Assembly (NCBI GenBank): GCA_021781965.1
Contig: JAJXVU010000002.1
Location: forward strand, 28,788-92,787
Source: Pseudomonadota bacterium
GTDB lineage: Bacteria > Pseudomonadota > Gammaproteobacteria > UBA1113
DNA length: 64,000 nt
Direction of reading: 5' to 3'
Shown: positions 31,066-36,718 of the stretch, one piece after another
Numbering within the stretch: position 1 is the stretch's first letter
Layout: the number at the start of each line of letters is the position of its first letter
Notes under the pieces: model-generated
The model's database searches: none
The model's input: the letters and a program-made list of their open reading frames with translations, nothing else
What the model was told of the DNA's origin: nothing
Position numbers and translations under genes: made by a program

Positions 31066-32574
31066 ATGCGTAAAGCAGCCATTATCACCAGTGTAGGCAT
31101 CATCGCTGCCTTTTTTCTAGGCACTCCTTATTTCTTTGGGCAAACCAATCAATCCCTCAACGATGAATTATTAACCCGAACCAATCATTTATTACAAGGC
31201 AAAGGCGAACAACAGCCTGTGTCTGTATCACAAGAAGATGTGATCGCCAGTTTTGTCATAGATGAAAAAATTTATCATGGCCCTTTTTATTGGGGAAAAG
31301 ATGCTGCGGGCAAATCGCATTTTGGCTTTGGTCGCGGTTATTTTGTTTCAGAGGCCAAACCAGACGACAAAACTCGCCAATGGTTACAAGCCCAAGGATT
31401 ACAATCCACTGGTGCTAATTGGGAAGAACGTACCGCTGAGATATCCTTATTAGGACAAATTAACGCCACAAGTCATATGTCTGCCATAGCCTTCAAAAAT
31501 AGCGATGCCACCTTGAATTGGGAAGGTGCGAGCACCAAGATGGTAATATCACCGGGTTTAACCAGCCTTAAAGCCAATGTGACTATAGGCCCTTTGTCCT
31601 ATGTGCAACAACATTCTCTGCTCGAAGTGCCTAGCGCCAATGTGAATGTGAAATTACGTTATAAAAATGGTTTATGGGTAGGTTCATCTGAATTAAAAGT
31701 CCCGCAAATTACCACCAGTCAGAACAATAAAGCTGAGATGGCCATAGGCAACTTGTTGCTGCATGGGAATTCCAATGTTAGCGGTAATTTGCTCAGCACC
31801 ACTGTTACGCTGGGTGCGGATACCGTGCAAATTGGATCGGTAAATTATGGTCCACTCAGTTATGATTTCAATGCGAAAAATATCGACGCCAATGCCTGGT
31901 TAAGATTAAGGGATTTAGCCTCCCAATATGATGCATTGATGAATGCCAACTCATTGGTGTATAATTTGAGCCTAAAGCATTATCATCGTGGCTGGTTTAA
32001 CTCTAACGCACAAATGGTCTTGACTATCAGCCGCCCTAAACCTATAGGGCTCATTAAGCAGCAACTCAATACTTTGACCAGACAATCCGAGCTGTTGATC
32101 GTCGGTAATGAAATCAGCAAAACGCTACCCGCTATAGTCAATAAAGGTGCGCAATTCAGTTTGCAACCTACGCAGAATCATGCACAGCCCGATATGTTTC
32201 AATTCAATGCCTCGTTGACTTTCCCTAAAGTGTTGCAACCACAAGACGTAGGGCAATTGATTGAAAAAGCCGAAGCGCACGTCAAGATCTTATTTTTGTC
32301 TGACTTAATAAGAACGGCAACTGCACATCAATATCCTGACAAAAGCAACGATGATGTAAACGCATCGACGCAAACCTTGCTCAACAAATGGGTGAGCTCC
32401 GGCTATTTAAGCCAAACCGATACGCAATATCTATTTAGTTTAGATTACTCGCAAGGCAACTTAAGCGTGAATGGTAAAACAATGGCTGACGATGCGGCTA
32501 CAGTCGTATCTGAAAATGTACCCGGAATGGTAATGCCAGTGGCAGGTGCAGTTCCGCCTGTGGCAGGGAAATAG
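31066..32574 (+). CDS. YdgA-like (DUF945) envelope protein
   Basis: 502 aa with an N-terminal TM/signal anchor. Size and composition resemble E. coli YdgA. Weak call. Confidence 0.4.
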   Translation: MRKAAIITSVGIIAAFFLGTPYFFGQTNQSLNDELLTRTNHLLQGKGEQQPVSVSQEDVIASFVIDEKIYHGPFYWGKDAAGKSHFGFGRGYFVSEAKPDDKTRQWLQAQGLQSTGANWEERTAEISLLGQINATSHMSAIAFKNSDATLNWEGASTKMVISPGLTSLKANVTIGPLSYVQQHSLLEVPSANVNVKLRYKNGLWVGSSELKVPQITTSQNNKAEMAIGNLLLHGNSNVSGNLLSTTVTLGADTVQIGSVNYGPLSYDFNAKNIDANAWLRLRDLASQYDALMNANSLVYNLSLKHYHRGWFNSNAQMVLTISRPKPIGLIKQQLNTLTRQSELLIVGNEISKTLPAIVNKGAQFSLQPTQNHAQPDMFQFNASLTFPKVLQPQDVGQLIEKAEAHVKILFLSDLIRTATAHQYPDKSNDDVNASTQTLLNKWVSSGYLSQTDTQYLFSLDYSQGNLSVNGKTMADDAATVVSENVPGMVMPVAGAVPPVAGK

Positions 32575-32766
32575 TTTTAGCTTCCCCAGATGTGAATGCG
32601 TCTGGGGATGAAATAACTATCTCACATAATTGTTTGCCCCTCATCCTGAAAAAAGCCAGCCACTAAGTTTAATGCAATTCCATACCGTAAGTCATTGAAA
32701 AACATATAAAAAAATTATTTTATTAACCAATCTTTTCCCCTGCCCTTCCTCTCTATCCAGTTTGCG

Positions 32767-32814
32767 ATACGCATCTTTGCGATTCGCAAACTTGCGAATC
32801 GCAAAGATGCGTAT
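32767..32814. promoter_or_regulatory. Perfect inverted repeat (22-bp arms, 4-nt spacer) overlapping the -10 region of the AAA ATPase gene
   Basis: atacgcatctttgcgattcgca-aact-tgcgaatcgcaaagatgcgtat. The right arm runs into TATTATACT, followed by the AGGAG RBS and the ATG at 32843. Confidence 0.7.
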
Positions 32815-32842
32815 TATACTGCGTTAAAGTAGGAGAATTAAC

Positions 32843-33973
32843 ATGCGCAAAAGAGATTACTTCCCCCTAGGGATAGCCTTTGGAAAAGCTTTTTGTAACC
32901 GAAAAGAAGAAACAGACTTATTATTAAATAATATAACTAATGGCAAGCACACATTACTCATGGCTACCCGGCGATATGGTAAATCAAGCCTAGCATTACA
33001 TACCATTAGCTTAAGTAACTTGCCTTATGTTGAAACTGACTTCTATATGGCGAGCACAGAAAAAATTGTAGAGAGCTATATCTTAAATAGTGTGGTTGAG
33101 TTAATTGGCAAGGCCCTGGGTAACGTCGATAAATTAATTAGTTCTATTAAAAAGTATATAAAAACCTTAAAACCTAGATTAGAGATTGGAGGAGCCAATT
33201 TAAAGTTGGAACTGGTTGCGGCTGTAGAGTCAGATCCTGCTACCAATGTAAAAGAAGCTCTTTTACTTTTAGAACGTTTACTAGCAGAGAAAGGGAAACA
33301 AGCTGTACTGTTAATGGATGAGTTTCAGAATGTAGGTGTAATTGCTAAAGGAACAGGTATTGAAGCAGCCATTAGGCATGTGGCACAAAAGACAAAATAC
33401 CTCACTATTATATTTTCTGGGAGCAATAGAAAACTGTTGCAAACCATGTTTGAAGATGAAAATAGGCCTTTATATAAGTTATGTTGGAAATTAACGCTGC
33501 AAAGAATTTCCGCAACACATTATCAATCTCATCTGCAAAAAGCGGCGAAGGAAGCTTGGAACGAAGAACTTGAAGAAGCTGTTATTGATAAGATATTTCA
33601 ATTAACAGCGAGACATCCTTACTACCTTAATAAGCTTTGCGATAAATTATGGACTTATTATGATACCACCCCAACTATAAAGAATGTAGAGTTGCACTGG
33701 TCAGAAATCATAGCGGAAGAAAAAAGCGATGCCATCAAAGAAATTTCTGCATTGCCTTCTGGTCAAAAGAATGCTTTAAGCAAACTAGCAGAAAATGAGA
33801 CAACTCAGATGACAGAGAAGCAAACTATAATGGATCTGAAAATGACAGGTAGCTCTATTGCAAGAGCCCTAGAGGGACTAGAGGAGAAAGATATTATAGA
33901 GAAAGTTGAAACTGGCTATCAAATTATAAACCCAGTCATAAAGTTTTATGTTTTAAAAGGAAAGATATCTTGA
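32843..33973 (+). CDS. P-loop AAA+ ATPase of the archaeal-ATPase (PF01637-like) family with C-terminal winged-helix (DUF234-like) domain
   Basis: Walker A ATRRYGKSS, Walker B VLLMDEFQ, sensor FSGSN, and C-terminal wHTH region (TGSSIARALEGLEEKDIIEKV). Confidence 0.7.
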   Translation: MRKRDYFPLGIAFGKAFCNRKEETDLLLNNITNGKHTLLMATRRYGKSSLALHTISLSNLPYVETDFYMASTEKIVESYILNSVVELIGKALGNVDKLISSIKKYIKTLKPRLEIGGANLKLELVAAVESDPATNVKEALLLLERLLAEKGKQAVLLMDEFQNVGVIAKGTGIEAAIRHVAQKTKYLTIIFSGSNRKLLQTMFEDENRPLYKLCWKLTLQRISATHYQSHLQKAAKEAWNEELEEAVIDKIFQLTARHPYYLNKLCDKLWTYYDTTPTIKNVELHWSEIIAEEKSDAIKEISALPSGQKNALSKLAENETTQMTEKQTIMDLKMTGSSIARALEGLEEKDIIEKVETGYQIINPVIKFYVLKGKIS

Positions 33974-34145
33974 ACGTATAATTAAAAAAATAAATATAGA
34001 ACAAAAATGTCAGTATATTCTAGCCACACATTCGGAGTTTTTTATTGCGCCAGAAACAATCAAAAATATAATACGCTTTACTTTAGACAAGGATAATCAT
34101 ACGCTTACAAACTCACCCTCATTAACTGAAGAACAGCAAATATTT

Positions 34146-34856
34146 ATGAGAATATTAAGCAATGCAAATTCAACTCGAGCATTTTTTGGTAAGAAAATTA
34201 TACTAGTTGAAGGGCAAACAGATCAGTACTTTTTTAAAGCGGCTCTAGAAAAATCACACCCCGAGCTAATGCAAGAAATTACTGTTACTGATATTAGCGG
34301 TAAAAAGGAATATAAAGCATGGAAATCATTTTTTGAAGCTTTTGGATTGACCGTATATTATATAGGAGATTTTGATAATGTAGAGGAGTTCAAATTATCA
34401 CAGTATAAGAGATCTAAAATAAAGAAACAGATAGAGAATACTTTAAAGCAGAATAAACTGGATAAGTTAACTGAAAAACAAAAGAAAGAGTTGGAAATAG
34501 CACATAAAGAATTAGTAAAAAATGAAAATTTTATCATGTGCCCTCAGAGAACTCAATGGAAAAATTTGCTTGATATTTTTATGAAATTTGTAGCTGTGAA
34601 GGCCACGCCTCATGAAATATTGTCTAAAATGAAGGAGATGGATTCAGGAATTAATACGGAAATTGATAAGAAATATTTTGAGAAAATATATATACTGAAG
34701 TTCGGTGCACTTGAAGATTACACAGAAACCAAGCACGGTAGGTTAGATGAAATAATAAGCTTTTGTGAAAATAAGTTATCTGATTGGTTGCGCAATGACA
34801 GTAATGAGAAAGATAAAGAAATAAAAGAAATTATTCAACAGATTACAATCAATTAA
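34146..34856 (+). CDS. TOPRIM-domain protein: C-terminal part of an OLD-family (ATPase-plus-TOPRIM) nuclease, probably a 5'-truncated remnant
   Basis: TOPRIM Glu in IILVEGQTDQYF and a DxD motif in YYIGDFDNV. The same frame is open upstream to 33969 and encodes QYILATHSEFFIAP, which looks like an ABC/OLD-type H-loop, yet it has no start codon. Confidence 0.55.
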   Translation: MRILSNANSTRAFFGKKIILVEGQTDQYFFKAALEKSHPELMQEITVTDISGKKEYKAWKSFFEAFGLTVYYIGDFDNVEEFKLSQYKRSKIKKQIENTLKQNKLDKLTEKQKKELEIAHKELVKNENFIMCPQRTQWKNLLDIFMKFVAVKATPHEILSKMKEMDSGINTEIDKKYFEKIYILKFGALEDYTETKHGRLDEIISFCENKLSDWLRNDSNEKDKEIKEIIQQITIN

Positions 34857-35466
34857 CAACTACATTTTTATTAATGATGACAATCTATGCAGTTCAATAT
34901 ATTAGTGACAATAACATAGTCCATATTCTTTGCTTTCATTTGTCATCATCAATGATTCTAGTGGCATGAATGTTCTTATTAAGGGTGGCTGATCCGAAAA
35001 ATTTCGAGCCAGCCTGCGATAGGTCCATACTACTACTAGGCCTTAGTCTGTACGCCTAAGGTCAATTTCACTCACCTACAAATAAATCATTTCCTCGTCG
35101 AAACAACCTTATAGCTAAAGTATGTTTCTTAAAATGACTTAACGAGATACGCGCCCTAAAAGTAAGGATGGCGCAGCATTCCACACTCTAACTTTAATTT
35201 TACTATTTACGCTTCCAACACCTAAGCCCTTACTTAACGGGCTTTAATAAATAACTTTGCCGCAAAAAACTATATAGTTTTTTTAACTTTTTTTAAAAAT
35301 TTTTTTGTGACGGGATTTTTGGAAAATATTTAGAATACGATTCGTGTTAAAAAAGATATTGCATTTCAGAGAGCTTTCTGCAGATGGGCAGCTCACGAGC
35401 TGCCCCTACAATAGATGAATGACAATATCGAACAATTCAAAACATACGCGGTACTAAGATAACCTT

Positions 35467-35568
35467 CTACGTGTCATCCTCACCATGATGCAATTCATAC
35501 CACAAACCATGCAAGATAGCGAAAGAACATGCAAAGGCCGTACCTAAGATCCAAGCAAAATACCACAT
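35467..35568 (-). CDS. cydX: Cytochrome bd oxidase small subunit CydX (33 aa); below the ORF-track cutoff
   Basis: Reverse-strand translation MWYFAWILGTAFACSFAILHGLWYELHHGEDDT. The N-terminal MWYFAWILG matches CydX. Lies 10 bp downstream of cydB. Confidence 0.8.
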   Translation of the reverse strand: MWYFAWILGTAFACSFAILHGLWYELHHGEDDT

Positions 35569-35578
35569 GTTATTCCCC

Positions 35579-36718
35579 TTAATATTTATTCTGTGAATCA
35601 CTTTCTATAGAGTCTGCAGTGACGCGACCGCGCATAACTCTATAAACCCAAGATGTGTACAATAAGATGATAGGCATGAATATGACTGTACACACCAACA
35701 TGATGCGCAATGTTAATAGACTAGACGAAGCATCCCATACCAACAAACTCATACTAGGATGCGACGACGATGGCAACAAAAATGGAAATAAGGATAAACC
35801 GAAGGTAGAAATTACTCCCACTATAGCCAAACTACTAAAAACAAAACCCCATTTGCTTTGACCACGCCCTAAGCATAATAGCTGCCCAATGACGGCAACA
35901 ACGACTAATAGCGGTGCAATCCACAATAAAGGATTAAGATGATAATTGGTCATCCATCCTCCCGACATCATGCTCACTGCTTTATGCAAAGGATTAGATG
36001 GCCCAGCATGATCAACAATGCTATCCACCACGAAACCATTTAAACCTTTAGCCACCCACACTCCAGCAAGCATAAATAAAACCAACATGAGGATGGCGGC
36101 AATGCGGCCATATTGAATAGCGCGTTGTCGCACTATTCCTTCTGTTTTAGTCGCTAGAAAAGAAGCACCATGCATCGCCAACATGCACACGCTCACTAAG
36201 CCGCACAATAAAGCAAAAGGATTTAACAGACCCCACAATGTGCCCGTGTAGAAAACACGTAAACTATCGTCAAAGAAAAAAGGAACGCCTTGCAATACAT
36301 TACCTAAAGCCACGCCGAAAATGAGCGACGGCAGCAATCCTGCAATAAATAAAATCTTATCCCAGTTAGAACGCCATCGCGTCGAGGGCATTTTACTGCG
36401 ATATTTAAAGCCTACAGGGCGCAGAATAAAGCCCAGTAAAACAATCAGCATTGCTAAATAGAAACCGGAAAAAGATACTGCGTAGATAATAGGCCATGCA
36501 GCAAAAATAGCGCCAGCCCCCAGAATAATCCACACTTGATTACCTTCCCAAACCGGGCCTACAGTATTAATAACCACACGTCTTTCTATGTCTTTACGCG
36601 CTACAAAAGGCAATAACAAAGCCACACCTAAGTCAAAACCATCCATAATGGCAAAGCCGGTTAATAACACACCGAGCAATAACCACCAGATAATGCGCAT
36701 GCTTTCATAATCAAACAT
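35579..36718 (-). CDS. cydB: Cytochrome bd ubiquinol oxidase subunit II
   Basis: 379 aa polytopic membrane protein downstream of cydA. CydB-like N-terminus (MFDYESMRIIWWLLLGVLL). Confidence 0.85.
   Translation of the reverse strand: MFDYESMRIIWWLLLGVLLTGFAIMDGFDLGVALLLPFVARKDIERRVVINTVGPVWEGNQVWIILGAGAIFAAWPIIYAVSFSGFYLAMLIVLLGFILRPVGFKYRSKMPSTRWRSNWDKILFIAGLLPSLIFGVALGNVLQGVPFFFDDSLRVFYTGTLWGLLNPFALLCGLVSVCMLAMHGASFLATKTEGIVRQRAIQYGRIAAILMLVLFMLAGVWVAKGLNGFVVDSIVDHAGPSNPLHKAVSMMSGGWMTNYHLNPLLWIAPLLVVVAVIGQLLCLGRGQSKWGFVFSSLAIVGVISTFGLSLFPFLLPSSSHPSMSLLVWDASSSLLTLRIMLVCTVIFMPIILLYTSWVYRVMRGRVTADSIESDSQNKY

Follow-up and report, generated by a model that had tools for sequence, protein, structure and literature searches.

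The window, that is, the whole 64-kb stretch of DNA analysed, contains a gene for an AAA+ ATPase, preceded on the same strand by a DUF945 gene and followed by a gene for a stand-alone OLD-like TOPRIM protein, and then by cydX and cydB. A long perfect palindrome lies immediately upstream of the ATPase gene, where it is combined with the predicted promoter. The features of the palindrome, the promoter and the ATPase gene are the following.

32767-32814: perfect inverted repeat of 48 bp, ATACGCATCTTTGCGATTCGCAA-AC-TTGCGAATCGCAAAGATGCGTAT, with a 2-nt centre (AC)
32792-32797, forward strand: predicted -35 hexamer TTGCGA, from a consensus scan
32815-32820, forward strand: predicted -10 hexamer TATACT, from the consensus scan and the alignment of 24 homologous promoters
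32831-32835, forward strand: Shine-Dalgarno sequence AGGAG, 7 nt 5' of the ATG at 32843, read from the sequence
32843-33973, forward strand: gene of the 376-residue AAA+ ATPase (ATPase_2/AAA_14-like) with a C-terminal winged helix
33749-33970, forward strand: winged-helix region, residues ~303-376, from the AlphaFold2 model
33848-33886, forward strand: predicted recognition helix GSSIARALEGLEE, residues 336-348
33863-33865, forward strand: codon of Arg341

The TOPRIM gene (34146-34856, forward strand) starts 172 bp past the ATPase gene and encodes 236 residues (PF20469, 3e-12). In the PADLOC Old model, the match is confined to residues 372-577, and in the GajA models to their C-terminal parts; the protein has no ATPase half. 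The gene may be either a remnant or a small defence gene in its own right. A conserved pair of ATPase and OLD-like TOPRIM protein, in the manner of PARIS or Gabija, was rejected because, among the loci compared, the TOPRIM gene is found at the ATPase locus of this genome only and is missing at every other one.

A preliminary description of the sequence had reported a 48-bp perfect inverted repeat at 32767-32814, and the repeat search found it with the same coordinates and total length. The arms (32767-32789 and 32792-32814) are 100% complementary and measure 23 nt each on either side of the 2-nt centre, instead of the 22 bp initially given. This is the longest perfect inverted repeat of the whole window. 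The claim that such a palindrome is rare by chance was borne out, as the longest perfect arms reached 9-11 nt in 20 first-order Markov simulations of the window, compared with the 23 nt observed; the palindrome is non-random, far beyond chance. It ends 28 nt before the ATG, in agreement with the distance of about 30 bp from the start codon noted earlier. The runner-up inverted repeat, at 54036-54070, has 16-nt arms and a 3-nt loop followed by CTTTTGTTG, and resembles an ordinary intrinsic terminator. Tandem Repeats Finder also reported repeats in 8047-8689 and 61332-61460, with periods of 99 bp (about 3 copies, 73-79% matches) and of 24/48 bp (5.4 and 2.6 copies), which are probably coding repeats.

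Rather than being a single site, the palindrome is made up of short palindromic units arrayed with a phasing of 15 bp. Tandem Repeats Finder, which is independent of the inverted-repeat search, identified 2.9 copies of the 15-bp unit TTGCGATTCGCAAAC at 32762-32805. The 13-mer TTGCGA-N-TCGCAA has two occurrences in the 64-kb window, both of them in the array, where 0.17 would be expected in the window. In the register of this 13-mer, the array consists of three units and a half-unit.

32762-32774: unit -2, TTGCGA-T-ACGCAT, TTGCGATACGCAT
32777-32789: unit -1, TTGCGA-T-TCGCAA, TTGCGATTCGCAA, a perfect 6-1-6 palindrome
32792-32804: unit 0, TTGCGA-A-TCGCAA, TTGCGAATCGCAA, the left half-site of which is also the -35 hexamer
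32807-32812: terminal half-unit, ATGCGT, the partner half of which is taken over by the -10 region

The notation TTGCGA-N-TCGCAA (6-1-6) is equivalent to TCGCAA-NN-TTGCGA (6-2-6). In this alternative register, the 48 bp form three 14-bp sites with single bases between them.

32769-32782: site 1, ACGCAT-CT-TTGCGA
32784-32797: site 2, TCGCAA-AC-TTGCGA
32799-32812: site 3, TCGCAA-AG-ATGCGT

The whole 48 bp is perfectly palindromic because each outer 14-bp site exactly mirrors the other. The half-sites alternate at 7 and 8 bp, whereas a spacing of 10-11 bp (about 10.5 bp) is expected of a classical winged-helix dimer, and adjacent 15-bp units are turned by about 154 degrees about the helix relative to each other. 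The element had been proposed to be the operator of a dimeric repressor. The operator is retained from this proposal, but not the single dimeric site, since there are at least three palindromic sites phased at 15 bp. A genome-dispersed repeat of the REP or MITE type was discarded, as the motif is found at this locus only within the window, and elsewhere always 5' of the same gene family.

The predicted -35 and -10 hexamers are separated by a spacer of 17 bp. They form the sole sigma-70-like match in 32300-33100, although one site for 2.2 expected in shuffled sequences is not significant by itself. From this predicted promoter, transcription is expected to start at about 32827, so that the palindrome would extend from about -60 to -13 and the full array from about -65 to -15. 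The array spans the predicted -35 and the entire spacer, and ends abutting the predicted -10. Of the overlap between palindrome and promoter that had been described, the part concerning the predicted -35 and the spacer is confirmed, but the palindrome adjoins the -10 without containing it. The -10 had previously been read as TATTAT (32812-32817), which is probably 3 nt too far upstream, as both the scan and the register of the 24 promoters give TATACT. With TATTAT as the -10, the -35 paired with it would moreover be AACTTG, a poor one, and TATACT is preferred by the family alignment. A spacer operator of the MerR type, which needs an over-long spacer of 19-20 bp, was dismissed for a spacer of 17 bp. 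A divergent minus-strand promoter in the palindrome was also dismissed, since the sequence at the mirror position is CGCAAA and there is no -10. Further upstream, a hairpin with the sequence CCCCAGA(N10)TCTGGGG (32583-32608) lies 9 nt past the DUF945 stop and has a T-run on neither strand. It may be a weak terminator and, because the T-run is missing, read-through from the DUF945 gene toward the palindrome is possible. An AT-rich stretch is found 5' of the array, at 32694-32725.

The Walker A (RRYGKSS) and Walker B (DEFQ) motifs of the ATPase are invariant in an alignment of 25 sequences. The Pfam models matching the protein are AAA_14, with 32.5 bits for a cut-off of 27, and ATPase_2 (PF01637), with 31.8 bits for a gathering cut-off of 33.2. 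The latter match covers the full profile (1-225), and many homologues carry precomputed PF01637 hits. No DNA-binding domain was called by the Pfam scan of the window ATPase, while some homologues have precomputed MarR_2 (PF12802) hits or MarR/PadR names from their sources. Scans with NCBIfam and PADLOC returned only pepcterm_ATPase with 18 bits, the cut-off being 324, and PDC-S01 with 19 bits over the N-terminus alone. In the AlphaFold2 model (mean pLDDT of 83, pTM of 0.81), an AAA+ core is followed by a helical lid and, at the C-terminus, by a winged helix. The modelled winged helix comprises helices 306-317, 326-332 and 336-348, and a wing formed by residues 352-361.

Of the solved structures, those of two archaeal ATPases, SSO1545 (2fna) and PABY2304 (2qen), are ranked first by Foldseek, with E-values of 6e-14 and 3e-13 and TM-scores of 0.69-0.75. 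They have the same length and architecture as the window ATPase, with an identity of only 17-19%; the profile match of 2fna to the ATPase has an E-value of 1.5e-4. The next structural matches are the Orc1/Cdc6-DNA complexes 2v1u and 2qby, with TM-scores of about 0.49 and E-values of 5e-9 to 9e-9. No function or DNA target of SSO1545 or PABY2304 was found in the literature searched, nor was a function, DNA target or mode of regulation found, in an incomplete search, for PF01637, DUF234, COG1672, SSO1545 or Arch_ATPase.

The locus was compared with about 90-95 loci (designated by L numbers) collected by genome, metagenome and exact-protein look-ups, in which the relatives of the ATPase are 23-98% identical to it. 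All 24 loci examined at 60-98% identity have an array of this kind, with units in exact 15-bp steps. In 22 of these 24 related promoters, the last half-unit is followed by a TAnnnT hexamer in the -10 register. The unit 17 bp 5' of the -10 hexamer begins with TTGCG in 17/24 loci, many of which have TTACGA in other units; TTGCG is kept at the -35 despite TTACGA elsewhere in L005, L011, L015, L024 and L028. As the other units differ while TTGCG is kept at this position, the -35 half-site is doubly constrained, by its role in the operator and by its role as -35. Among the close relatives, between about 35 and about 115 nt separate the array from the start codon, so that its position is linked with the promoter rather than with the ribosome-binding site. 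In the closest relative (L002, 98% identical), the palindrome is imperfect and 54 of the 59 array positions are identical to those of the window.

The family is large, with 3,510 clusters at 50% identity for E<=1e-3 and 1,756 for E<=1e-10, nearly all of 370-390 residues. Most of the distant relatives, which extend to about 25% identity and also occur in Vibrio and Bacteroides, have arrays of lineage-specific words. Depending on the lineage, these words are CGA-N-TCG, CGT-N-ACG, GTGA-N-TCAC or GTAA-N-TTAC, AGCTTATTAAG, CAAT-A-ATTG and TAGAAT-A-ATTCTA; the word is TAGTGTCTAAC in Vibrio parahaemolyticus and ATGATTAT on a Bacteroides plasmid. A periodicity of 14-15 bp was detected in 17/74 upstream regions, compared with 0/365 control segments of the same loci. 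Likewise, an 8-mer word is present at least five times in 19/72 upstream regions, against 0/213 controls from the same loci, and perfect inverted-repeat arms of at least 15 nt were found in 9/72 upstream regions, against 0/355 controls. The signal is weaker in the group at about 25% identity, where at least four copies of a word are present in 7/19 cases, and the repeats of some of these relatives seem, by eye, to be downstream of the -10. Two paralogous ATPases (L040 and L052, 47% and 39% identical to the query) are encoded about 12 kb apart on SDBT01003357.1, and their upstream words are entirely different, of the ACGTCACGT type in L040 and of the AGCTTATTAAG type in L052. Directly in front of the 27%-identical homologue of L063, at about 1100-1170, the palindromic array is replaced by a heptanucleotide microsatellite, (GTGACCA)n. 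In Vibrio parahaemolyticus (L094; NZ_CP062152.1, 257518-258771), the gene of the 26%-identical WP_021486265.1, labelled 'ATP-binding protein' in its source, lies downstream of nrdAB and is preceded by two copies of TAGTGTCTAAC, a half-unit and then TATACT.

The ATPase gene behaves as a solitary movable cassette. No neighbouring gene of at least 80 codons is conserved beside it among at least 60 loci, and no small partner ORF (30-110 codons) is conserved either, as the clusters obtained contain only translations of the repeats or near-identical loci. Some neighbours are of a mobile or defence-like nature; L091 has genes for a phage integrase, CsrA and an IS66 transposase, and L093 has one for a Pif1-like helicase with HTH_40. 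The surroundings in L090, L092 and L094 are housekeeping genes. A phage origin was considered, and no relatives were found in the viral contigs searched.

The ATPase gene alone is co-inherited with the repeats. Within the close group, position 3/11 of the operator is G:C in 21 of the 22 half-sites associated with proteins that have Arg341, and A:T in 72 of the 89 half-sites associated with Thr, Ala, Ser or Val at this position of the predicted recognition helix (Fisher test, 7e-12, uncorrected for phylogeny). A contact between arginine and guanine is chemically plausible. The rule relating residue and base was first drawn from one clade with arginine, and then checked on P0041 (L090), a second Arg341 protein located elsewhere in the neighbour-joining tree. 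The operator of P0041 is TCGCAA/TCGCAT, as predicted by the rule, and the operators of its threonine-bearing sisters, P0051 and P0010, read CGTA, also as predicted. Arg341 has two independent origins, and the co-variation rests on only these two events. It is nevertheless the strongest indication that the winged helix of the ATPase itself reads the repeats, and residue 341 is the predicted specificity determinant for base 3/11. The suggestion that the C-terminal winged helix of the ATPase could recognise the palindrome thus gained support, in that the repeats follow the gene into unrelated contexts, the word shifts with the lineage, and residue 341 co-varies with the base.

The mirror symmetry of the array exceeds the needs of the unit consensus. 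In the window, as in L003, L005, L011 and L093, each flanking site mirrors the other exactly. Even the 2-nt spacers within the flanking sites are mirrored in 8/27 loci, for 1/16 expected (P = 1.8e-4). Long perfect palindromes with 38-58 paired nucleotides recur 5' of relatives with unrelated sequences; the perfect arms measure 19-29 nt in L093, L040, L053, L011, L043 and L035, and the words are unrelated. The palindrome of L040 is perfect over 50 bp and has no loop. That of L093 (about 1385-1446), 5' of a 64%-identical homologue, is a 62-bp element with 29-nt perfect arms that takes in a -10-like TTAATG and its mirror image, so that a divergent promoter is conceivable there. The source of the symmetry may be either a dyad-symmetric oligomer that recognises the array as a whole, or repeated correction by quasipalindrome template switching. 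Quasipalindrome template-switch mutation is known to turn imperfect inverted repeats into perfect ones (PMC7202029).

It is considered likely that the array is composed of the cognate operators of the ATPase, which would bind them through its winged helix, cover its own promoter and repress its own gene. The short palindromic units recur at 15-bp intervals between about -65 and -15, over the -35 and the whole spacer of a promoter of the sigma-70 type. The product of 32843-33973 would contact these units with the winged helix at its C-terminus, and would probably do so in several symmetric pairs of subunits or as a single higher-order oligomer. Cooperative occupancy of the 3-4 phased sites by the ATPase would exclude the RNA polymerase, and the gene would be repressed. 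The negative sign of the regulation is deduced from the position of the array over the promoter. A dependence on ATP, suggested by the conserved ATPase motifs, is speculation. Self-regulation alone makes no biological sense for a protein, which is counted against this explanation.

It is most improbable that the units belong to another host regulator, encoded in trans, and that the ATPase gene is simply one that it regulates. Palindromic sites of 13-14 bp that overlap promoters are common to many repressor families, but the word of the array follows the ATPase lineage across phyla and differs between paralogues on the same contig. The confinement of the 13-mer to this single place in the window also speaks against such a regulator, as do the prediction of the operator base by a residue of the ATPase recognition helix and the lack of a second conserved gene. 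It is very unlikely that the palindrome acts as a nucleic-acid structure, whether as an RNA hairpin in the 5' leader or in read-through transcripts of the DUF945 gene (an insulator or a processing site), or as a DNA cruciform. The predicted fold is indeed stable, with -43.1 kcal/mol for RNA (z = -8.2) and -27.8 kcal/mol for DNA (z = -9.8), the two arm mismatches of L003 are transitions that would make G-U pairs, and the mirroring of the spacers as well as the possible read-through from the DUF945 gene, past a hairpin without T-run, would fit such a role. However, the predicted transcription start is downstream of the palindrome, no T-tract follows the palindrome, and no terminator-like site is present in 32300-33100. 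The fold energy is not conserved either, varying from -6.6 to -39 kcal/mol among relatives with 60-98% identity; the arrays of L006 and L008 are pure direct repeats, and some units of L008 have A-C/C-A mismatches on the coding strand. The stable 5' hairpin offered as an alternative in the preliminary description is accordingly unlikely, given an array in a fixed register 5' of a conserved -10, a variable distance to the start codon and a hairpin stability that is not conserved. Rfam models searched over 31500-35600 gave sub-threshold matches to eukaryotic miRNA and snoRNA hairpins only (29.7 bits, for gathering thresholds of 50-100), which were set aside as generic hairpin hits.

Autoregulation could instead be secondary to the use of the array as an ORC-like assembly platform, an ATP-dependent nucleoprotein loading site serving as replicator or iteron, chromosome organiser or defence sensor, but this is judged unlikely. 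Orc1/Cdc6 proteins on origin DNA (2v1u, 2qby) are the best structural matches after the two archaeal ATPases, and archaeal orc1 genes adjoin their repeated binding elements. The dyad symmetry over 38-58 paired nucleotides that recurs in unrelated lineages, the AT-rich 32694-32725 upstream of the array, and the mobile or defence-like contexts with an integrase and IS66 (L091) or a Pif1-like helicase (L093) would also be compatible with a platform. Against it, the repeats are contiguous, without an unwinding element between them, and no feature is more conserved than their fixed register relative to the -35 and -10. Neither a helicase, a primase nor a partner gene is conserved, no relatives were found in viral contigs, and many loci lie amid housekeeping genes.

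The proposed operators of the ATPase share features with several known systems. ParA_F is an ATPase with a winged helix-turn-helix that binds repeated promoter hexamers in inverted orientation as several cooperatively assembling dimers, the number of dimers being three on F, an arrangement conserved across related systems (bioRxiv 10.1101/2021.05.10.443373). As in the type Ia ParA proteins (SopA/ParA_F of F and ParA of P1), an ATPase with its own winged helix-turn-helix is associated with repeated sites that blanket its own promoter. However, ParA is a deviant-Walker-A ATPase (ParA/MinD) with an N-terminal winged helix-turn-helix, whereas the window ATPase is an AAA+ protein with a C-terminal one. 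ParA is also paired with ParB and a centromere, whereas no partner or downstream gene is conserved here, and the ParA hexamers are 28 bp apart, in contrast with the contiguous 15-bp units.

DnaA is an AAA+ ATPase with a C-terminal DNA-binding domain, which represses its own promoter through several DnaA boxes in a nucleotide-dependent manner. The window ATPase has a comparable organisation and multiple sites at its own promoter, to which it is presumed to bind. The DnaA boxes are asymmetric 9-mers, unlike the present units, and domain IV of DnaA is not a winged helix; the relationship between the two sequences is limited to the AAA+ core. DnaA mainly targets oriC, whereas the array at its own promoter is the only putative target known for the window ATPase. 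The archaeal Orc1/Cdc6 proteins have the same order of AAA+ core, lid and C-terminal winged helix, together with repeated, partly dyad-symmetric elements beside their own gene, but share just 12-15% identity with the window ATPase, with a TM-score of about 0.5. Their ORBs flank an AT-rich unwinding element, whereas the present units are contiguous and phased with a bacterial sigma-70 promoter, and there is neither a link to MCM or the replisome nor any conserved neighbour here. The winged helix and the short palindromes over the -35 and -10 of the own promoter are reminiscent of the MarR/PadR autoregulators. These are dimers of about 150 residues without ATPase, typically with one or two sites and half-sites about a helical turn apart, whereas here a 300-residue AAA+ module precedes the winged helix-turn-helix and 3-5 sites are spaced every 15 bp. 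The mycobacterial STAND regulator IniR has an ATPase domain that resembles SSO1545 (PMC5760070). With its 818 residues, MalT-like sensor and LuxR-type helix-turn-helix, it was rejected as a counterpart and offers at most a loose parallel. The array and the ATPase lack the defining features of an Orc1/Cdc6 origin-ORB system, of a type Ia ParA partition operon and of a terminator or leader hairpin, which were likewise rejected.

The reading of the element as a multi-site array of operators, with the ATPase as the recogniser, is well supported by the comparison of sequences. Autoregulation itself is an ordinary mechanism. What sets the present case apart is the occurrence of co-evolving private operator arrays across an uncharacterised AAA+/winged-helix family, with a predicted specificity residue and recurrent perfect palindromes. 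The palindromes raise a separate question, that of selection by a symmetric oligomer as opposed to the 'perfecting' of operator arrays by template switching. A more far-reaching idea, doubtful at present, is that the ATPase_2-type family (about 1,750 clusters) consists of ORC-like, sequence-specific DNA switches, each with private dyad sites of about 45-60 bp bound by a symmetric, ATP-controlled oligomer with a role beyond self-repression. If so, the perfect palindromes would reflect a single symmetric oligomer, possibly on extruded or distorted DNA, and the nucleoprotein complex would serve, for example, in sensing, in defence or in controlling the replication of a mobile cassette. AAA+/winged-helix proteins of the ATPase_2/COG1672 type are common in bacteria and archaea. 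Their own co-evolving arrays would give this family its first testable activity, sequence-specific DNA binding and self-regulation, for which WP_021486265.1 of Vibrio parahaemolyticus provides a cultivable test case.
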